Positions 24,039 through 34,515 of a stretch of 64,000 nt of DNA are shown here, piece by piece. Position numbers and translations under genes: made by a program. The notes under the pieces were generated by a model that saw nothing but the letters and a program-made list of their open reading frames with translations, did no database searches and was not told where the DNA came from. Each line of letters starts with the position of its first letter. The stretch's first letter is position 1. Origin of the DNA: an uncultured Chloroflexia bacterium. Its GTDB lineage: Bacteria; Chloroflexota; Limnocylindria; QHBO01. The DNA is taken from the NCBI GenBank assembly GCA_963827475.1, contig CAWHAZ010000005.1, positions 864,001 through 928,000 on the forward strand. Reading direction: 5' to 3'.

Positions 24039-25701
24039 TCAGACCTCGAGCACGATGGGCAGGATCATCGGTCGGCGGTGAGTCTTCTCGTAGAAGAAGC
24101 GGCTGAGCACGTCGTGGATCTTCGACTTCAGGTACCCCGGCTCCGCCCGCTGGCCCTCGCCGGTCTGCTCCAGCGCCTTGGCGAGGTGAGCGCGAGCCTC
24201 CTCCATCACCGGGTCGTCGGGGTCGGACAGGAAGCCGCGGCCGGTGAGGTCGGGGCCGCTCACGGGCCGTCCGGTGGCCGCGGCCACGGTCAGGGCCACG
24301 GTCACTACACCGTCCATGGCGAGCGCCCGCCGGTCACGGAGAATGACCCCGTCCACGCCGTCCACGGCGGCCAGGCCGTCCACCAGCACCGCGCCGGCCG
24401 GGACGCTGCCCGCGAGTCGGGCCCGCTGCCCGTCGAACTCGACCACCTGTCCATTCTGCAGGACGAAGATGCGGTCGACGGCCACCCCGGCCCCCTCGGC
24501 CAGCAGCGCATGCTGGACGAGCATCCGGTACTCGCCGTGGACCGGGATGAAGTGGCGCGGCTTGGCCAGGCCGAGCATGAGCTTGAGCTCCTCGCGCGAG
24601 CCGTGGCCCGAGACGTGGCAGTGGGTCATCGGCTCGTAGTGGACCATCGCGCCTTCCTTGAACAGGTTGTCGATGGTCCGCGCGACCGCCTCCTCGTTGC
24701 CGGGGATCGGCGAGGCGGACAGGATCACCGTGTCGCCGGGCACGATCGTGATGCTCCGGTGGTCGCGGTTGCTCATCCGGGTCAGCCCGGACATCGGCTC
24801 GCCCTGCGAGCCGGTGGTGACGACCATCAGTCGCGACGGGTCCAGTCGGTCGAGCTGGTCCTTGCGCACGACCGTGCCGTCGCGCCCATCGAGATAGCCC
24901 AGCTCGGTGGCGATGGCCGCGTTCTGCTCCATGCTCCGACCGATGAGCACGACCTTGCGGCCGTGCTCCGCGGCGGCATCGATGGCCTGTTGCACGCGAC
25001 CGATGTTCGACGCGAAGGTGGCCATGATGACCCGGCCTTGGGCGGCCCCGATCAGCTGGCGGAGCGACTCCCCGACCGTGGCCTCGGACAGCGTGTAGCC
25101 CTCGCGCTCGGCCCGCGTCGAGTCCGACAGGAGGAAGTCCACGCCCTGCTTCCCCCACTCGGCGATGAGGCCGAGATCGGCGCGCGTCCCGTCCGGTGGG
25201 GTGTGGTCGAACTTGAAGTCCCCGGTGTGGATGATCGTCCCCCGCTGATGGCGGATCGCGAACCCGACGCCGCCGGGAATGGAGTGGTTGACCCGGAACG
25301 GGGTGATCGCGGAACGCGCCGACCGTGAACTCGACCCCCGGCTCGACCTCGTGGAGGGTGGTCGAGCCGAGCAGCTTGTGCTCCTTGAGCTTGCCGGTGA
25401 CCAGGCCGATGGTCAGCTTGCTGGCGTAGATCGGGGTGCCGCTGATCCGGGGCAGGACGTACGGCAGGCCGCCGGTATGGTCCTCGTGGCCGTGGGTCAG
25501 GACGATGCCGCGGACCTGGTCGCGGTGCTCGGCGAGATAGGTCGCGTCGGGCACGACCAGGTCGATGCCGAGCATGTCCGGATCGGGGAAGGCGAGACCG
25601 CAGTCGACGACGACGATCTCGTCATCGGCCTCGATGGCGGTGATGTTCTTGCCGACCTCGCCGACCCCGCCCAGCGGGATGATGCGTAGGGTTCCTGGCA
25701 T
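24039..25701 (-). CDS. rnj: Ribonuclease J; frameshift near 25310
   Basis: PLGGVGEVGKN, THGHEDH, HTGDFK, FASNIGR, TGSQGEP, HVSGH, PVHGEYR. Confidence 0.96.
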
Positions 25702-25724: not shown

Positions 25725-26420
25725 TCAGAAAAGTGTGAGTTGGTCGTCGTCCCGGGACGCCGGCAGCGGCGCCTCGGCGGGTGAGTCACCCGGCGAGTCA
25801 CCCGGCCCCACGGGCGTGATTCCCTGGTCTGCCCCCTCCGCCTGCTCGGCGGCGAGCGCCTCGCGCGCCTCCAGGAGCGCCGCCGGCAGCGCCGCGAAGT
25901 CTCGGGCCAGCGTCTCGCGCAGGGCCGTGGCCCGGAGCGCGGCAGCGGGATGGTACATCGGCAGCACAAACCGGCTGCCCGATCGGCGGAGGCGGCCGTG
26001 GACCTCCGAGATGCGCGCCCCGGGCAGGTAGCGCTGGAGCGAATACCGGCCGAGGGTCACGATCAGGACCGGGTCCAGCGCCCGCTCCTGGCGGTCGAGG
26101 TACGGGCCGCACGCGGCGATCTCGGTCGGCTCAGGGTCCCGGTTGCCGGGCGGGCGGCACTTCACCACGTTGGTGATGAACACGTCGCTCCGCCCCCAGC
26201 CGATCGAGCCGAGCATCTCCTCGAGGAGCTGTCCAGCGGCGCCCACGAACGGGCGGCCGGTGGCGTCTTCCCGCTGGCCGGGCCCCTCCCCAACGAGCAG
26301 GACGTCGCTGATCAGGTTCCCCTCCCCTGGAACGGCCAACGTGCGGCCGTTCGCCAGGGGACAGCGGGTACAGGCTCGCACCTCGGCCGCGACCGCGGCG
26401 AGATCGGCCTCCCCGCTCAT
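25725..26420 (-). CDS. Uracil-DNA glycosylase, family 4 (Fe-S)
   Basis: CTRCPL, GEGPG, GRPFVGAAG, TNVVKCRPP.NRDP, YHPAA. Confidence 0.96.
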   Translation of the reverse strand: MSGEADLAAVAAEVRACTRCPLANGRTLAVPGEGNLISDVLLVGEGPGQREDATGRPFVGAAGQLLEEMLGSIGWGRSDVFITNVVKCRPPGNRDPEPTEIAACGPYLDRQERALDPVLIVTLGRYSLQRYLPGARISEVHGRLRRSGSRFVLPMYHPAAALRATALRETLARDFAALPAALLEAREALAAEQAEGADQGITPVGPGDSPGDSPAEAPLPASRDDDQLTLF

Positions 26421-26436: not shown

Positions 26437-29070
26437 TTACGAGCGCTCCGCGTCCGACCCGGCCGCAGCCCCGACGCCGGAGTGGGCCATGTGCCGCTCC
26501 ATCGCCGCGCGCCGGCTGAGGTTGACGCGACCCATGCGGTCGATCTCGGTCACGACCACCATCAGCTCGTCGCCGATGGTCACGACGTCCTCGACGCGAG
26601 CCACCCGGTAGTCGGCCAGCTGGCTGATGTGGACCAGCCCCTCCTTGCCCGGCAGGATCTCGACGAAGGCCCCGAAGTTCATGATCCGGGTGACCTTGCC
26701 GAGGTACTCCTTGCCGACCTCGACGTCGCGGGTCAGGCCCTCGATCCAGCGGACCGCCTTCTCGGCGGCCTCGCCGTCCACGGCGGCAATCTGGATCGTG
26801 CCGTCGTCCTCGACGTTGATCTGGGTTCCGGTCTCGGCCGTGATCTGGCGGATCACCTTGCCGCCGGCGCCAATGACGTCGCGGATCTTGTCGACCGGGA
26901 TCTTCAGGGTCGTGATCCGTGGCGCGTACGGGCTCAGCTCCGAACGGCTGGCGCTGATGACCGAGGTCATCTTGTCCAGGATGAACAGTCGCGCGGTGCG
27001 CGCCTGCTCCAGGGCGTCGCGGAGGATCTCCGCCGTGATGCCGGCCACCTTGATGTCCATCTGGAGGGCGGTCACGCCCTCGGCCGTGCCGGCCACCTTG
27101 AAGTCCATGTCGCCGTACGCGTCTTCCTTGCCGGTGATATCGGTCAGGACCGCGTAGCGGTTGGTGTCCGGGTCGGTGATCAGGCCCATGGCCGCGCCGG
27201 CCACCGGGGCCGAGATCGGCACGCCGGCGTCCATCAGCGACAGGGTGCTGCCGCAGGTGCTCGCCATCGAGGTCGAGCCGTTGGACGACACCACCTCGCT
27301 GACGACGCGGATGACGTACGGGAACTCGTCAACCGAGGGCAGGACCGGCAGCAGCGCCCGCTCGGCGAGCGCGCCGTGGCCGATCTCTCGGCGGCCGGGG
27401 CCCCGCATCGGTCGTGACTCACCCACCGAGTACGGCGGGAAGTTGTAGTGGTGGAGGTACCGCTTCTCGGTCTCCGGCCCGATCGTGTCCAGGCGCTGGA
27501 CGTCGCTCGAGGGACCGAGGGTGGCGATGGACAGGGCCTGGGTCTGGCCGCGGGTGAACAGGCCCGAGCCGTGCGTCCGCGGCAGGACGCCGACCTCGAC
27601 CGAGATCGGTCGGATGGTCGTCGCGTCGCGGCCGTCGATCCGGATGTTCTCCGACAGGACGAGCTCGCGAGCGCCGGCCTTGGTCAGGACGTCCATCAGG
27701 GGCGAGCCGATGCCGTGGCGGCGGCGGACGTCCTCCAGGGCCTGTCCCTGCTCGGCGCGGTTGTACGCTTCCTTGCCCCGCCGAATTTCGGCCGCGATAT
27801 CGGCCCGGACAGCGTCCAGCCGCTCGATGAGGTTGCCGGTCAGGCTGATGAACAGCTCGGCGGTGGCCTCCGCGTCGGGCATGGCCCGGTGCGCAGCCGG
27901 ATGGTCCTTGCCGAAGATGAAGCGCATGAGGTCGGCCAGCTTGTAGCCGCCGGCATCGGGGTAGAGCTGGTAGGCCAGCTCGAGGGTGTCGTAGATCGCG
28001 CTGGGAGCCCACTCGACGTCATTCGGCAGATGGCGCAGCACGAACGGCAGGTCGAAGGCCACGTTGTGGGCCACCACCGGGGCGTTGCCGACCCACTCGA
28101 CGAACTTGGGGAGCACCTCGGCCGCGGTCGCGGCGGAGGACACGTCTTCATCGGTCAGGCCGTGGATCTGGTGACCGATGATCGAGCGACCGGGGTTGAC
28201 CAGCGACTCGAAGCGGTCGACCACTTCGCCGTCCCGCACGCGCAGGGCGGCGATGTCCACGATGTAGCCCTGCTCGGGCTTCATGGCCGTGGTCTCGACG
28301 TCGAGGATCACGAACTCGGCGCCCTTCTGGCTGAGGGCGCGGCCGAGCTTGACGATGGAGTCGGCCTTCGGGCCGATGAACGGCGAGCGCTTGGGCGTCC
28401 CGGAGTTGGCGACCAGCTTCTCCTGGATGTCGATCGACTTCTGGAGCTCGCTGTGGCCCCAGGTGATCGCGTCGAGCATGACCGCCTCGGGCAGGATCTT
28501 CGCCCCGGCCTCGACCATCATGATCGCGTCGCGGGTGCCGGCCACGACCAGGTCCATGTCGCTGTTTTCCAGCTGGCTGGTCGTCGGGTTGGCCACGAAC
28601 TGGCCGTCGACCCGGCCGACGCGGACGGCGCCCACGGGGCCGAGGAACGGGATGCTGCTCACGCTGAGCGCGGCCGAAGCGCCGTTCACGGCGAGGATGT
28701 CGGGGTCGTTCTCCTGGTCCGCGCTGAGGACGGTCAGGACGACCTGGACGTCGTTCTTGTAGCCCTTCGGGAACAGGGGGCGAATCGGCCGGTCCGTGAG
28801 GCGCATGGCCAGGATGGCCGCCTCCGACGGGCGCGACTCGCGCTTGATGAAGCCGCCGGGGATCTTGCCCGCGGCGTACATCCGCTCCTCGTAGTCGACG
28901 GTGAGCGGGAAGAAGTCGATCCCCTCCCGGGGCTCGGACGAGACGGCGGTGGCGAGCACGACCGTGTCGCCGTAGCGGAGCACGACGGCGCCGTCCGCCT
29001 GTTCGGCGAGCTTGCCCGTCTCCATGGACAGGGTCTGCCCGCCGATTTCAGTTTCAACCTTGATGGCCAA
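26437..29070 (-). CDS. pnp: Polyribonucleotide nucleotidyltransferase with an internal DEDDh exonuclease domain (877 aa)
   Basis: [75 protein letters not shown] and S1 domains; about 160-aa insertion with DVETT/HNVAFD/HRAMPD. Confidence 0.98.
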
Positions 29071-29202
29071 GAGTTTCCTCCAATGTGGTGGTCCGCTCCG
29101 GCGCGGCAGACCCGGATCGGGTGGCGCGGCACGGACGGGGTGCGTCGCGAAGGACGCGAAATACGGGAATCCCGGCGGAGCCGGGTCAGTGGGTAGGTGA
29201 CG

Positions 29203-29472
29203 TTACCTTCGCAGGCCGAGTCGGCCGATGACCGCGCGATAGCGGTCCACGTCCGTGCGGACGAGGTAGGCCAGGAGTCGGCGGCGCTGCCCGACGAGCT
29301 TCAACAGCCCGCGGCGCGAGGCATTGTCGTTGGGATAGCTGCGGAGATGATCGGTCAATGACTTGATCCGCTCGGTCAGGAGCGCGATCTGCACCTCGGG
29401 CGAACCGGTGTCGCCGTCGTGGGTGGCGAAGTCATTGGCGACAGCGACCTTCGTTGCCGGGTCGAGCGGCAT
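29203..29472 (-). CDS. rpsO: 30S ribosomal protein S15
   Basis: [36 protein letters not shown]. Confidence 0.99.
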
Positions 29473-29513: not shown

Positions 29514-30447
29514 TCAGACGGCCACGTTGAGCGCGGCGCGGGCATCGGATTCGTCCCGTTTCATCTGCTCGATCAGATCGTCGACCGATGCAAATGTGCG
29601 TTCCTCGCGCAGGCGGGCCGCGACCTCAACCCGCAGCTCCTGGTCGTACAGGTCGCCGTCCCAGTCGAGGAGATGGGCCTCGAAGACAACGTCGCCATCG
29701 GTATGGAACACCGGACGTCGGCCGACGCTGATCAGCGCTGGTTGACCGATGGCCCAGCCGGCGTAGATGCCGAGCGCCGGCAGTGCGGGACGGTAGCCAA
29801 AGGCGAGGTTGGCGGTGGGATAGCCGAGCTCGCGGCCGCGACCGTCGCCACGGACCACGGTCCCGGTCACCGCCGACAGGCGACCGAGGAGCCGATGCGC
29901 GGTCTCCACGTCACCGTCGGCCAGGGCCTGGCGGATCCGGGACGAGGAGATCACGCCGTCGTCCGTCTCGGGCTCGACGAGCACGACCTCGAACCCGCGC
30001 TGGGCGCCAATCTCCGTCAACCGCTCCGGCGTACCGGCTCGGTCCTTCCCGAACGAGCTATCCGGGGTCATGAGCGATGGCAACGGGGCGTAGGCCAGGT
30101 CCCAACCGGTCGAGGAACACCTCGGGCGGCAAATCGCGGACGGCGGGGTCGAACCGCACGGCGAGGGGCTGGACGCCCACCGCCGCGATGTGCTCGAGGT
30201 TCTCTGCCAGCGGAGCAAGACGCTCCACGGTGCGGTCCGTGCGGATGACCTCGATCGGCGATGGGTCGAAGACGAGCGCCACCGGCTGGGCATCGCGGGC
30301 CGCGGCTGCCTCCCGGGTCGCCGAGAGGAGGTACCGATGTCCCCGATGCACTCCGTCGAAGACGCCGAGCGCGAGCGCGACCGGCCCGATCGACAGCTCG
30401 GCGACCTCGTCGAGGGCGAGGACGCGGTGGGTGATGGTGGCAGTCAT
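29514..30447 (-). CDS. ribF: Riboflavin kinase/FAD synthetase; frameshift near 30075
   Basis: GVFDGVHRGH, ISSSRIR, GRELGYPTAN, EAHLLD..GDLY. Confidence 0.95.
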
Positions 30448-31316
30448 CCGCCTTCGACCAGCACAGTCCGCGGATGGAGGCGGCCGTCCCGCAGCTCCCC
30501 GATCCCGAGCAGCCCGGACGGCCCGTGGACCTGGACCCGCCCCTCACCGAACCACGCCAGCTCTCCGCCGTGGGTGAATCGGCTCGCCTGGTCGGCGTCG
30601 AGGGTCACCGGCTGCAAGTCGAGCAGGCGCTCGACGGGAATGATTGCCACGTCCAGCCGCCCCTCGGTGGCCAACGACTCCAGCGCATCCGGCGTCCGCC
30701 CCTCGGTGGCGGTCAGTCCCGCGGCCTCCGTCCGGCGCAGGGCGTGGAGGTAGCCGCCGCAGCCCAGCTGCTCCCCGAGGTCCCGGGCCACCGAGCGCAC
30801 GTAGGTTCCCGGACCGGTCTCGAGGTCGAGGCGGACGTCGAGCCAGCCCTCGCCCTGAGTCGTGCCCAGCAGCCTGATCGCGTGGATCGTGACCTCTCGT
30901 GGCTCGAGCTCCAGCACCGATCCCCCGCGTGCGGCCTCGTAGGCGACCACACCGCCCGACTTGCGCGCGGAGTAGGCCGGCGGCCGTTGCGCGAACGTGC
31001 CGACGAACCCGGGGAGCACCTCCCGGACCGCGTCCTCGCCAGGCGGCTCGGTGCCGGGTTCGATCGGTCCCTCGCCGTCATCGGTCCGTGACCGGAATCC
31101 CAGGCGGACCACCGCGTCGTACCGCTTCCGGCCCCCGGTCAGCTCCTGGGACAGCCGGGTAGCGGGCCCGACCAGGATCGGCAGCACGCCTGATGCCAGT
31201 GGATCCAGGGTGCCGGCGTGCCCGATTCGGCGCAGCCCGGTCAGCCGTCGGACGAGGCCGACCATGTCGTGCGAGGTGGGACCGACCGGCTTGTCGAGGT
31301 TAATGACGCCGATCAT
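30444..31316 (-). CDS. truB: tRNA pseudouridine(55) synthase
   Basis: DKPVGPTSHD, GHAGTLDPLASGVL, PPAYSA, GTYVRS. Confidence 0.98.
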   Translation of the reverse strand: MIGVINLDKPVGPTSHDMVGLVRRLTGLRRIGHAGTLDPLASGVLPILVGPATRLSQELTGGRKRYDAVVRLGFRSRTDDGEGPIEPGTEPPGEDAVREVLPGFVGTFAQRPPAYSARKSGGVVAYEAARGGSVLELEPREVTIHAIRLLGTTQGEGWLDVRLDLETGPGTYVRSVARDLGEQLGCGGYLHALRRTEAAGLTATEGRTPDALESLATEGRLDVAIIPVERLLDLQPVTLDADQASRFTHGGELAWFGEGRVQVHGPSGLLGIGELRDGRLHPRTVLVEGG

Positions 31317-32278
31317 CGGCGCGTTTCAGCTCCCGCTCGCACTCGGCGAGGACCTGCACCCGGGCGTCCGCAAGCGGCGCCGCGACCGTGCAGCCCGCCG
31401 CGCGGGCATGACCACCCCCGCCGAAGACCGATGCCACCGCCACCGCGTCGGCCACGTCCGTGGTGCGGATGCTGACCCGTGTGGCGTCGGGGCCGTGCTC
31501 CTTGAACAGCAGGACGATGTCCGCCTCCTTCGACAGGCTGAGGATGTCGATGAACCCCTCCGAAGCCTCCCGCGTGGCGCCGGTCTCGGTCAGCATGGCC
31601 TCGGTCATCGCGGCGTGGACGATGCGTCCTTCAGCGGCGAACCCCACCGTGCCCAGGATCCGGCCCCAGACCGCGATCGTGACGTTGGACTTCTCGGCGT
31701 AGATCTTGCGATTGATCTCCGACAGGGAGGCTCCGGCCTCGACCAGGGCGGCGGCCACCCGCAGGGTTCGCGGCGTGACGTTGGGGTGAGCGAAGGTGTG
31801 GGTGTCGTTCACCATGCCGGCCAGGAGGACCGTGGCCAGCTCCTGGTCCAGCTCGACGCCCAGGTCCGGTAGAAGCAGGGCGACCATCTCGCACGTCGAC
31901 GCGGCCTCGGCATCAACGTGGTTCACCGCGCCGAAGCCGGGATTGCTCACGTGGTGGTCGATGTTCACGATCCGCGCCCGCTCGAGCCATGCCCCATGGT
32001 CGGTGGCGATCGTTCCGGTCCGCGCCAGGTCGCCAGAATCGACGATCACCGCCACGTCCGGCTCGAACCCGGGCACGCTGGCGCACGTCCGCCACGCCGG
32101 GCAGGAATTGGAGGTAGGACGGGACGGGGTCCGCCATCACCACCTCGGTCGGGATACCGAGCCGCTCCCCCACCTTCCGGATGGCGAGCGCGGCCCCCAG
32201 GGTGTCCGCGTCGGGATTCTCATGACCGATGACCGTGAGCCGCTGCGCCCCGCGGATGGCGTCGACGACCTCCTTCAC
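31300..32278 (-). CDS. nrnA: DHH/DHHA1 oligoribonuclease/pAp phosphatase (NrnA-like); frameshift near 32075
   Basis: HENPDAD, NIDHH, GGGGHARAAG; lies between rbfA and truB. Confidence 0.9.
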
Positions 32279-32631
32279 TCCTCGTCGTCCTCGTCCGCAT
32301 CCAGGTCGTGCAGGATGCGCAGCACGTTGTCCCCGCTGGCGATGGAATCGTCGAAGCGGAACTCGAGGCGCGGGACCTTCCGGATGGTGAGCCTCTCGCC
32401 CAGCCGGTGCCGAAGCCAACCCGCGGCATCGGTCAGCGCTTTGATCGTCGTCCCCGAGTCCGCTTCTGGGCCGTACACGGACACCCACACCTGCGCCAGG
32501 GTCAGGTCGGGAGTGGTGTGGACCCGGGTGACGGTCGCGAAGCCGATGCGCGGATCGGCCATGTCTCGCTGGAAGATCTGCATCAGCTCGGCCCGGATCT
32601 GGCTGTCGAGCCGATCGGTGCGCTGGCTCAG
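32275..32631 (-). CDS. rbfA: Ribosome-binding factor A; probable CTG start
   Basis: [32 protein letters not shown]; follows infB. Confidence 0.96.
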   Translation of the reverse strand: MSQRTDRLDSQIRAELMQIFQRDMADPRIGFATVTRVHTTPDLTLAQVWVSVYGPEADSGTTIKALTDAAGWLRHRLGERLTIRKVPRLEFRFDDSIASGDNVLRILHDLDADEDDEE

Positions 32632-34515
32632 GCGGAACCCTCCGACACCATCTGGAAGCACTCGATGACGTCGCCTTCGGCGAACTCCGGCGATCCGGCA
32701 AGGCCGATGCCGCACTCGAAGCCCGAGGCCACTTCGCGGACGTCGTCCTTGAACCGACGCAGTGACTCGATCCGTGACTCGACGACGAGCTGCCCGCCGC
32801 GCATGAGCCGGGCCTGCCCACCGCGGACCATCTTTCCGTCGACGACATAGGAGCCGGCGATGGTGCCGGCCTTGCCCGCCTTGATCAGCTGCCGGACCTC
32901 CGCGTGGCCCTCGATCTGCTCGATCAGCTTCGGGGTCAGCAGGCCCTGCAGCGCGAGCTGGATGTCATCGGTCAGCTTGTAGATGACCTCGTACAGGCGG
33001 ACGTCCACCCCGGAGGCCTCGACCGCGCGCTCGGCGCCGGGATCGAGCTTGGTGTTGAAGCCGACGACCACCGCCTGGGAGGCGGCCGCGAGCAGGACGT
33101 CAGACTCGTTGATGTCGCCCGCCCCCTCGCTGAGGATGTTGATCCGGGTCTCGGTCGTGCTCAGGTTGTCGAGCGCATGGCGGATGGCGCCGAGCGAGCC
33201 CTGGACGTCGGTCTTGAGGATGACCCGCAGCTCCTGGACCTCCGAAGACTGGATCTGGGCGCTGAGCTCCTCGAGGCTGGCGGCGCCGGAGCTGGCGGCG
33301 TGGCGCTCCACGGCCTCGGCCGCGTCGCGGGCGGCCTTCTCGTCGGCAACGACCCGCAGCAGGTCGCCGGCCTCCGGCAGGTCCTGGAGGCCGAGGATCT
33401 CGACCGCGGTCGCCGGCTCGGCGGTCTTGACCCGCCGTCCTGCTGCCGTGACGAGGGCGCGCACCCGACCGAAGGTCTTGCCCACGGTCACGATGTCGCC
33501 GACCTTCAGCGTGCCGGTCTGGACCAGGACGGTGGCCACGTTGCCACGGCCCTTGTCGACCTTCGACTCGATGATCGTGCCGTACGCCTCGCGGTCGGGG
33601 TTGGCCTTCAGGTCCTGGAGGTCGGCCACCAGGCCAATGACCTCGAGCAGGTCATCGAGCCCGATCCGCTGCTTGGCGGAGACGGCTACCGACGGGATGT
33701 CGCCGCCGAACTCCTCGATCAGCACCCCGTTGTCGGCCAGCTCCTGCTTCACGCGGTCCGGGTTGGCATCGGGCTTGTCGATCTTGTTGATGGCGATGAT
33801 GAGAGGGACGCGGGCGGCGCGGACGTGGTCGATGGCCTCCTTGGTCTGGGGCATGACGCCGTCGTCGGCGGCGACCACGATGATCGCGATGTCGGTGACC
33901 TGCGCGCCACGTGCCCGCATGGCGGTGAACGCTTCGTGTCCGGGTGTGTCGAGGAAGACGATCCGCCGGTCGCCATGAACCGCCTCCGAGGCACCGATGT
34001 GCTGCGTGATCCCGCCGGATTCCCGTGACGCCACGGCCGTGTCGCGGATGGCGTCCAGCAGGCTCGTCTTGCCGTGGTCGACGTGGCCCATGATCGTGAC
34101 GATCGGGGCTCGGGTGACGAGGTTCGCGGGGTCATCCTCGCCCCACGGCGTGACCCGCACGCCGTCGTCCCCGATTGCTCCCGGCGCGACCAGGGCCGGC
34201 GCCGGCGCCTCGCCGTCAGCCGCGCCCTTGGCGACGAGCTCCATGCCCATCTCCGCCGCGACCAGGGACGCGGTGTCGTAGTCGATCGACTGGTTGATGG
34301 TGGCGAAGATCCCGTTCCGGATCAGCTCGCTGATCACGGCCGCGGTGCTGACGCCGAGGGCCGCGGCCAGGTCCTGGACGACGACGGTCTGGCCGACCTC
34401 CACCGGCCCGGTCGGGCGCGGCAGCGTGGCGGTCTCGGCGGCCGCGCTGCGCGGCCTCCCGCCGCTTCGGCGGCCGCGGCCCGCGGCGATTCTGGGTGTA
34501 CCTACGCGGAGGCAT
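32628..34515 (-). CDS. infB: Translation initiation factor IF-2, short N-terminus; apparent frameshift near 34450
   Basis: [45 protein letters not shown]; N-terminal [12 protein letters not shown] lies in another frame. Confidence 0.97.

Follow-up and report, generated by a model that had tools for sequence, protein, structure and literature searches.

Few RNA-degrading enzymes are as conserved or as well studied as polynucleotide phosphorylase (PNPase), whose domain plan has been treated as fixed. The canonical bacterial enzymes from S. antibioticus, E. coli, C. crescentus and others (solved chains of 700-784 aa) share with the PNPase described below two RNase PH domains (PH1 and PH2), KH and S1 domains, the phosphorolytic motif and the rpsO-pnp gene order. 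The GDMDFK motif of PH2 has a role in catalysis, and the helical domain is located on the face opposite KH/S1. The eukaryotic exosome with Rrp6 pairs a PH-type ring with a DEDD 3' exonuclease of the hydrolytic kind. The Caulobacter degradosome, as portrayed in parts of PMC4245959, likewise brings together such a ring, PNPase, and a hydrolytic DEDD 3' exonuclease, RNase D. The partners in both systems are separate, non-covalent DEDDy polypeptides, whereas in the PNPase described here a DEDDh domain lies covalently within the ring subunit itself. The insertion of a DnaQ-type domain into the middle of another enzyme has likenesses in PolC (P0129, between PHP and the polymerase core) and in a RecJ-like protein (P0265, between DHH and DHHA1), but those hosts are DNA enzymes and here the host is PNPase.

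The window analysed is a 64,000-nucleotide stretch from an uncultured Chloroflexia bacterium of the class Limnocylindria, and its pnp gene was the sole pnp match in the 1.92-Mb, 7-contig genome. The first-pass annotation had described this gene as an unbroken 877-aa frame in the rpsO-pnp position, which proved correct; rpsO was found 5' of pnp in 46/46 Limnocylindria loci searched. It had also proposed an insertion of about 160 aa behind PH1. A full DEDDh domain is indeed present there, with the ExoI, ExoII and ExoIII residues where they had been placed (Table 1), but the foreign segment is longer, at 228 aa (229-456), and is not a mere addition, since it takes the place of ~62 aa of the helical domain of canonical PNPase. 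A conserved G-x-P-K-R, alignable with the canonical enzyme, closes PH1. The insert is absent from all solved PNPases, whose alignments split in two around it, and for the C-side segment no counterpart was detectable in canonical helical domains by hhalign, where the alignment starts at ~aa 457.

Table 1. Features of the pnp locus, in positions of the window
Feature	Coordinates	Strand	Basis or remark
pnp ORF	26437..29070	(-)	877 aa + stop, TTG start, frame without stops
rpsO, upstream partner of pnp	29203-29472	(-)	directly upstream
RNase PH domain 1 with RNase_PH_C (aa 1-228)	28387..29070	(-)	Pfam and alignment
N-side linker of replacement segment (aa 229-250)	28321..28386	(-)	least constrained part
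DEDDh (DnaQ-like) 3'-5' exonuclease domain (aa 251-410; Pfam 254-407)	27841..28320	(-)	profile matches, nearest structure
ExoI motif D257-V-E259	28294..28302	(-)	D257 = 28300-28302, E259 = 28294-28296
ExoII aspartate D340	28051..28053	(-)	motif position and conservation
ExoIII motif H394-x4-D399	27874..27891	(-)	H394 = 27889-27891, D399 = 27874-27876
C-side replacement segment (aa 411-456)	27703..27840	(-)	arginine-rich, presumed helical
Last conserved helix of helical domain and RNase PH domain 2 (aa 457-710)	26941..27702	(-)	
KH domain (aa 720-777)	26740..26913	(-)	Pfam
S1 domain (aa 783-854)	26509..26724	(-)	Pfam

A Pfam scan of the protein returned PF01138 (RNase_PH) and PF03725 (RNase_PH_C) twice each, PF00013 (KH_1), PF00575 (S1) and, over profile positions 1-164 of 164, PF00929 (RNase_T; 84.3 bits with the cut-off at 24, E 1.8e-23), so that the insert scored as the DEDDh domain it had been taken for. 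The whole protein scored 981.9 bits with the PNPase model TIGR03591 (cut-off 525) and 977.5 bits with NF008805 (cut-off 471). The all-helical domain expected of a PNPase was not recovered, as only its flanks align (to aa 228 and from ~aa 457); this altered domain is a point of difference and no ground for excluding the protein from the PNPase family.

The insert contains all the DEDDh motifs, namely ExoI D-x-E, the ExoII D and ExoIII H-x4-D. The solved structure closest to it was the PolC exonuclease domain 2p1j (E 7e-20), and it also matched NF005981 (Exo-DinG; E 1.7e-34) and the DinG structure PDB 8zef (E 7.5e-11). Scored alone, the insert reached 71.9 bits with TIGR00573 ('dnaq'; cut-off 71.5), and within the whole protein 68.6, below the cut-off. 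The best 25 of its 31 NCBIfam matches were all to enzymes of the DNA side or to exonucleases without a name (Exo-GIY-YIG 'PRK07883', PolC, DinG, epsilon, ExoX), and models of the Orn and RNase T families were absent among these 25. The domain is a member of the DnaQ/PolC/DinG/Exo-GIY-YIG branch. The DNA polymerase III epsilon model TIGR01406 gave 78.4 bits, under its equivalog cut-off of 222.7; the domain is also embedded in PNPase and not a stand-alone subunit. Exo-DinG (B. subtilis and S. aureus DinG; PDB 8zef) is of the same DEDDh subfamily, but here there is no helicase, the partner is a phosphorolytic RNase ring instead of an ATPase, and the domain is internal and not N-terminal; the DinG/XPD helicase domains PF13307 and PF06733 were found neither in the PNPase nor anywhere else in the genome.

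The residues D257, E259, D340, H394 and D399 were invariant in 121/121 homologues, a set drawn from a database search in which the best 120 of 483 matches are listed, and in 37/37 insert-bearing rows from three families, down to 36% insert identity. The DEDDh part showed dN/dS of 0.04-0.32 in 11/12 pairs, the remaining pair being saturated. This is close to the 0.03-0.28 of PH1, and the N-side linker reached 0.93. The GDMDFK motif (aa 653-658), which the first-pass annotation had reported as intact, was matched at each position by no fewer than 117 of 118 ungapped sequences and was invariant over 44 rows that included canonical proteins, as were many columns of PH2, KH and S1. Judged by their conserved residues, the DEDDh catalytic pentad, the phosphorolytic site, KH and S1 all are intact. 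The fusion is maintained under purifying selection, and the earlier reading of it as a DEDDh module with a complete pentad, fused into a PNPase with a complete phosphorolytic site, is supported.

Among the GTDB-defined families of Limnocylindria (f1-f5), PNPase matched continuously through the insert in 49/50 f1, 44/44 f3 and 6/6 f4 genomes, and the canonical form, matched in two pieces, was found in f2 (48/49) and f5 (1/1). When the insert columns were left out, the PNPase tree joined f1, f3 and f4 in one clade (SH-aLRT 100). On this tree the fusion is a single gain, in the ancestor of these three families. The class tallies take in the unpublished genomes G067, G084, G091, G093, G106, G112 and G120, and the phylum tallies G185, G281, G306, G354, G393 and G456, with loci L021 (G084) and L031 (G120) counted in the 46/46 for rpsO and in the 29/29 given below for UDG; tallies without them keep every pattern (e.g. 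insert in 46/47 f1, canonical form in 45/45 f2). Independent PNPase insertions elsewhere in the phylum were looked for with a canonical PNPase query on 401 Chloroflexota genomes, which matched 349 of the 355 outside Limnocylindria. At least two PNPase matches were obtained in 39 of these 349, with a full-length first match in 24 of the 39. The remaining 15 were all inspected and had frameshifts, contig breaks and one ~25-aa gap, with no large PNPase insert in any of them. Independent insertions were thus rejected for Chloroflexota, the scope of this negative. A separate fusion with a different DEDDh domain would lie hidden among 26,714 database matches.

RNase II/R (PF00773) was found in 0/151 genomes of the class and RNase D type domains (PF01612) in 0/100 f1/f3/f4 genomes. 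The genome studied here has neither a PF01612 domain, nor another DEDDh domain, nor a gene of Orn or RNase T type, and the insert is its only DEDD-type domain; RNase PH is present. The other recognised 3' exoribonucleases are therefore phosphorolytic, and the position of the insert as the only hydrolytic DEDD/RNB-type 3' exonuclease beside PNPase and RNase PH points to RNA. In contrast, its DnaQ/PolC/DinG/Exo-GIY-YIG affinity and its alternation with the Exo-DinG helicase point to DNA or R-loops. The absence of RNase II/R was considered as a reason for the gain and dropped, because the canonical sister families also lack RNase II/R.

The explanation that we consider best, and advance tentatively, is that the protein still works as a PNPase, with an active DnaQ-type DEDDh domain in place of most of the helical linker and beside the phosphorolytic site, giving a 3'-5' exonuclease of two chemistries. 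From the sequence and its relatives we infer the catalytic activity, trimer geometry and substrate of the DEDDh module as follows. At PH2, phosphate would be used for nucleotide removal with release of NDPs, and at the DEDDh site water would be used with release of NMPs, two metal ions probably being held by D257, E259, D340 and D399, with H394 as the putative base. In the preferred working model, three DEDDh modules would sit on the PNPase trimer at the usual helical-domain sites and attack, in a distributive and phosphate-free manner, any free 3' ends brought near by the KH/S1-bearing ring. Tails and leftovers of single-stranded RNA would be the main substrates, probably joined by ssDNA or the RNA of hybrids, which would make the fusion a single-polypeptide analogue of a PH-ring nuclease with its DEDD partner. 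The earlier interpretation, of a hydrolytic nuclease near the product exit of the trimer that could finish short oligomers, trim structured 3' ends or act on ssDNA, is as a whole partly supported.

Such a second, chemically different site would be a natural test case for the coupling of phosphorolytic and hydrolytic 3' decay in one particle, to be set against PH rings with separate DEDD partners. It would also be a model for phosphate independence in bacteria where every other recognised 3' exoribonuclease needs phosphate. A full-text literature search of main texts, Limnocylindria papers included, found no description of a PNPase-DEDD fusion; the main text of PMC13212565 had 0 occurrences of PNPase, exonuclease, DinG or RNase.

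A serious though doubtful alternative is a role on DNA or R-loops inherited from DinG: the DEDDh exonuclease borne on a DinG helicase in other Chloroflexota would have moved into PNPase in the f1+f3+f4 ancestor, and the helicase would have been lost. The DinG helicase domain PF13307 was found in 47/49 f2 and 1/1 f5 genomes, against 1/50 f1, 1/44 f3 and 0/6 f4, the two exceptions being a contig-end fragment and a 2041-aa frame. The sole PF00929 match of f2/f5 lay at the N-terminus of a DinG-type frame in 5/5 genomes examined, so that Exo-DinG is the form carried by these sister families and the pattern over families is complementary to that of the insert. The DinG helicase part had no match in the genome studied here, exactly one PF00929 domain per genome was found in 46/50 f1, 37/44 f3 and 38/49 f2, and the nearest families of the insert are DNA enzymes. 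Parts of PMC12525004 report that ssDNA, as well as the RNA strand in hybrids, is degraded by the DEDD domain of B. subtilis DinG, and that free ssRNA with Mg2+ is not. For B. subtilis and E. coli, PNPase has been reported to act on the ends of ssDNA and in repair (portions of PMC2709576, PMC3241651 and PMC5379764). However, because the complementarity falls on one tree branch, it amounts to no more than a single event and may have come about by chance. Furthermore, a second PF00929 domain in 5/6 f4 genomes means that one per genome is no rule, and the host PNPase is an RNA-binding machine.

Trees of 185 and 107 DEDDh domains (FastTree, IQ-TREE) supported the PNPase-embedded clade at 97-98. This clade takes in six fragments placed there by their DEDDh part (P0130, P0131, P0141, P0165, P0179 and P0216); the 107-row tree omits these and two further fragment proteins (P0124, P0126), eight in all, and every domain outside two neighbourhoods picked from the first tree. 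Against descent from DinG, the insert fell in the unconstrained trees with Exo-GIY-YIG and with stand-alone forms of small size, and not with class DinG, at weak support (74-86). The AU test, however, did not reject the insert and the class-DinG exonuclease as one clade (p 0.725), and the DinG-constrained tree was 30 log-likelihood units better than a short free search; the DEDDh tree thus decides nothing on origin. The neighbouring UDG gene does not discriminate either: it adjoins pnp downstream in 29/29 f1 loci and, at varying distance, lies in 3/6 f3, 2/3 f4 and 1/7 f2/f5 of 16 further downstream stretches, and as a hint of DNA repair it was dropped.

The alternation with an exonuclease-helicase over families may tie RNA decay to the processing of DNA or R-loops. 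A wider, rather unlikely scenario is a hand-over between DNA and RNA machinery, in which the sole DnaQ-family exonuclease left or outlived the DinG helicase in the ancestor of the three families and was built into PNPase, on which, as the single platform, all hydrolysis of 3' ends in RNA, R-loops and ssDNA would then have come together. If so, RNA decay would be physically merged with genome maintenance in a lineage without RNase II/R, RNase D or stand-alone DnaQ.

Improbable, in our judgement, is a dedicated nanoRNase that, like oligoribonuclease, finishes the 2-5-nt oligomers PNPase cannot degrade. Tethering to an enzyme that produces short leftovers, in a genome lacking an Orn or RNase T type gene, would suit such a role, but neither of these models is among the best NCBIfam matches of the insert given above, and the canonical sister families get by without the fusion. 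A DHH/DHHA1 (NrnA-like) gene lies at 31300-32848, 2 kb from pnp, and as a possible handler of short oligomers it weakens the idea further. This gene is frameshifted in the assembly, where indel-type frameshifts also occur in rnj and ribF. The chances are still slimmer that the DEDDh fold is a non-catalytic, structural or regulatory stand-in for the helical domain, for instance gating phosphate/NDP access or binding a partner. The domain replaced is, according to sections of PMC6181284, one that seems to control how phosphate and NDPs reach the active site, but all five catalytic residues are invariant in the 121 sequences and purifying selection on the DEDDh part matches that on PH1.

A chimeric assembly, or a neighbouring gene joined by frameshift, can be rejected despite the indels in rnj, ribF and the DHH gene, as the same architecture recurs in 99/100 sampled f1/f3/f4 genomes and in all of the best 120 listed of 483 database matches from several sources, GC content is even across the pnp region, and contigs of other public runs cross both junctions, linking PH1 codon ~179 with DEDDh codon ~355 at one and DEDDh codon ~401 with PH2 codon ~502 at the other. 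At the 27840/27841 boundary, where no listed contig has at least 31 letters on each side, continuity is given by one record (27566-27870) and overlapping unitigs; both junctions are thus spanned, as the first-pass annotation had required of a true fusion. The gene was also matched by contigs from two metatranscriptome libraries, some with 0 differences, these run matches being Logan contigs that give no ranking of depth or expression; a match in an RNA library is no proof of transcription. In the sources, these proteins are annotated as PNPase or as 'DNA polymerase III epsilon subunit family exonuclease'.

The single pnp of G000, the genome carrying the window (1.92 Mb, 7 contigs, 90% complete), has rpsO immediately upstream, lies in a region with a GC level of 0.66-0.72 throughout, and encodes a PNPase in which a DEDDh exonuclease domain stands between the two RNase PH halves. 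Pfam recognised two RNase_PH, two RNase_PH_C, one KH_1 and one S1 domain, and the PNPase equivalog TIGR03591 scored 981.9 bits (cut-off 525), in two stretches either side of the insert. The domain scan, the unbroken frame and the sole pnp bear out the first-pass annotation, which had also placed the five catalytic residues (D257, E259, D340, H394 and D399) correctly and reported the GDMDFK motif.

Features of pnp and its surroundings
Feature	Position	Strand	Remarks
pnp ORF	26437-29070	-	877 codons, TTG start, no internal stop
Replacement segment	aa 229-456		22-aa linker, 160-aa DEDDh domain, 46-aa arginine-rich tail
PF00929 (RNase_T/DEDDh)	aa 254-407		profile positions 1-164 of 164, E 1.8e-23
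GDMDFK	aa 653-658
KH_1	aa 720-777
S1	aa 783-854
RNase J	24039-25701	-	two overlapping ORFs, different frames
PF03167 (UDG superfamily)	25725-26420	-	E 8e-35, begins 16 nt past pnp stop
Variable base	29095		rpsO-pnp spacer
RibF	29514-30447	-	two overlapping ORFs, different frames
DHH/DHHA1 (NrnA-like)	31300-32848	-	two overlapping ORFs, different frames

When insert-bearing proteins were aligned with canonical PNPases of the same class, Limnocylindria, and 12 outgroup Chloroflexota, two shared anchors were found to be 265-271 aa apart in the former as against 102-115 aa in canonical proteins. Profile comparison aligned only the flanks, up to G-x-P-K-R (aa 228) and again from about aa 457 (96% and 92% probability), the conserved helix preceding PH2 (the second RNase PH domain) that is common to canonical PNPases. 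Thus, 228 residues substitute for some 62 in the all-helical domain; the span originally proposed, 27841-28320 (codons 251-410), held for a DEDDh domain of about 160 aa but not for the whole foreign segment. PNPase chains in the PDB (546-784 aa) all align in two pieces around the insert and none contains it.

A search with residues 215-450 matched 483 proteins, of which the best 120, from several sources, all combine PF00929 with RNase PH domains; those with a named source among the matches listed were mostly from Candidatus Limnocylindria or Chloroflexota. Contigs of four public runs (three studies) span all 30 bins of the region, one running from codon ~179 in PH1 to codon ~355 in the DEDDh domain and another from codon ~401 (DEDDh) to codon ~502 (PH2), so that both junctions, which the first-pass annotation had wished to see spanned, are crossed. 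An assembly artefact is excluded by these contigs together with the same gene in the 120 listed homologues and in 99 of the 100 genomes of the insert-bearing families f1, f3 and f4. Two runs come from metatranscriptome libraries, and among their contigs some showed zero differences from the window, which is consistent with, though no proof of, transcription of pnp. At 29095 a base was absent in one contig from each of the four runs, either a further assembly indel or a strain difference. The split RNase J, RibF and DHH/DHHA1 genes, among which pnp is intact, look like indel errors of assembly or real pseudogenes; the rnj and ribF pieces form one frame in relatives. One insert-bearing PNPase, P0071 (76% identity across the insert region), carries a Zixibacteria (candidate division) label from its source; this probably stems from wrong binning or labelling and does not point to a second phylum.

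The insert query was run against 151 class genomes (G000 and 150 others in five families, some of them unpublished; the patterns were the same after dropping these). One continuous match was obtained in 49/50 f1, 44/44 f3 and 6/6 f4 genomes. In f2 (48/49) and f5 (1/1) only the two-piece match of a canonical PNPase was found, in frames of ~740-820 aa, and seven such proteins examined in full were 736-740 aa long. When the insert columns were left out of a PNPase tree rooted on the 12 outgroups, f1, f3 and f4 formed one clade (SH-aLRT 100) with f2 and f5 as its sister (99), and a single gain of the insert is therefore the most economical history. A canonical query matched 349 of the 355 Chloroflexota genomes searched beyond the class; none of the 15 split-looking cases contained a large insert, all being frameshifts, contig breaks or small gaps.

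Scored alone, the insert was closest to Exo-GIY-YIG 'DEDD exonuclease' models (E 2.4e-40), PolC, DinG, epsilon subunits and ExoX; it barely passed the 'dnaq' model (71.9 bits vs 71.5), and RNase T and oligoribonuclease models were absent from its best 25 family matches. The closest solved structures were the PolC exonuclease domain 2p1j (E 7e-20), PolC, epsilon and DinG 8zef, and among Chloroflexota beyond the class the nearest relatives were Exo-GIY-YIG-UVR and Exo-DinG proteins (the latter a DEDD exonuclease fused to a DinG-type helicase). Searching 1.84 billion representatives yielded 26,714 matches; among those listed, Pfam confirmed a PNPase-embedded domain in P0124, P0126 and P0138 only, with which six further fragments group as candidates. 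The embedded forms made one clade in domain trees (97-98), whose sister position lacks resolution; by AU test (p 0.725), the DinG exonuclease of the class itself was not rejected as that sister. Further unusual DEDDh architectures among the closest representatives were a RecJ with PF00929 between DHH and DHHA1 (P0265, 739 aa), a protein with three tandem DEDDh domains followed by GIY-YIG and UVR (P0128, 1045 aa), a PolC with two DEDDh domains (P0129, 1631 aa) and a HAMP-PAS protein with a DEDDh domain at its C-terminal end (P0214, 913 aa). Automatic annotation holds hundreds of insert-bearing proteins under two names, PNPase or 'DNA polymerase III epsilon subunit family exonuclease'. No description of the fusion was found in full-text literature searches, nor by term search in the main Limnocylindria genomics paper (PMC13212565), supplements being outside both; the predicted parts, PNPase and DEDDh exonuclease, are known, and their combination and insertion site were not found in print.

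The five catalytic residues were invariant in 37/37 insert-bearing rows from three families, at insert identities down to 36%, and in 121/121 sequences of the set drawn from the insert-region search. Pairwise dN/dS of the DEDDh part was 0.04-0.32 in 11/12 pairs (the remaining pair being saturated), comparable to PH1 (0.03-0.28), while the short N-side linker was looser (up to 0.93). Each position of GDMDFK was retained in 117 or more of the 118 ungapped sequences, and many columns of PH2, KH and S1 were invariant even with canonical proteins in the alignment. From its sequence the DEDDh domain looks functional, and a non-catalytic role for it is very improbable.

The sole PF00929 match of G000 is the pnp insert; a broad DEDDh profile run on 19,681 six-frame ORFs found no other, even with the E limit at 10, and the DinG helicase of f2/f5 type gave no match.

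Nuclease domains by family (genomes with the stated content)
Domain	f1	f3	f4	f2	f5
DinG helicase, PF13307	1/50	1/44	0/6	47/49	1/1
Exactly one PF00929	46/50	37/44	1/6	38/49	1/1
RNase II/R, PF00773	0/50	0/44	0/6	0/49	0/1
RNase D/PolA exonuclease type, PF01612	0/50	0/44	0/6	8/49 (weak)	0/1

As PF00773 was unmatched in all 151 genomes, G000 included, and PF01612 in all 100 of f1, f3 and f4, the usual hydrolytic 3' exoribonucleases appear to be missing from the class. RNase PH is present in G000 (337 bits) and RNase II/R and RNase D were not found, so its other recognised 3' exoribonucleases are phosphorolytic; the window also encodes RNase J and a DHH/DHHA1 gene. The only DEDD/RNB-type hydrolytic 3' exonuclease domain predicted in G000 is thus inside its PNPase. 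In f2 and f5 the lone DEDDh domain was N-terminal on a DinG-type helicase in 5/5 genomes examined. Besides pnp, a second PF00929 domain occurs in five of the six f4 genomes (G011, G056, G065, G104 and G143), and G012, of the same genus, has an extra match in a 667-aa frame (contig C27:1421-1891).

The pentad is intact and under selection, and the host PNPase retains both its active site and its RNA-binding domains; the DEDDh domain is likely to be catalytically active. It is placed in a domain normally all-helical, which, according to a review (PMC6181284), appears to regulate phosphate/NDP access. The usual PNPase trimer would carry three DEDDh modules where the helical domains would be, and these could hydrolyse 3' ends via two metal ions, without phosphate and with release of NMPs. 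RNA 3' ends are tentatively favoured as the main substrate: the domain shares its chain with KH/S1, the searches yielded no other hydrolytic 3' RNase, and PH rings acting with separate DEDD partners offer a precedent. A role on DNA or R-loops inherited from Exo-DinG, while doubtful, could also be envisaged, as the domain's relatives are DNA enzymes, and in a B. subtilis study (PMC12525004) the DEDD domain of DinG is reported to cut ssDNA and, in hybrids, the RNA strand, whereas free ssRNA is not cut with Mg2+. PNPase is also reported to have a part in repair and at ssDNA ends (PMC2709576, PMC3241651, PMC5379764). The PNPase insert and the DinG helicase are, moreover, complementary across families; however, this goes back to one branch in the tree and is thus suggestive, not statistical. 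A pure nanoRNase role is improbable.

The uracil-DNA glycosylase superfamily gene (PF03167) adjoins pnp in 29/29 f1 loci; in most of the f3, f4 and f2 loci examined it was either more distant or not found.
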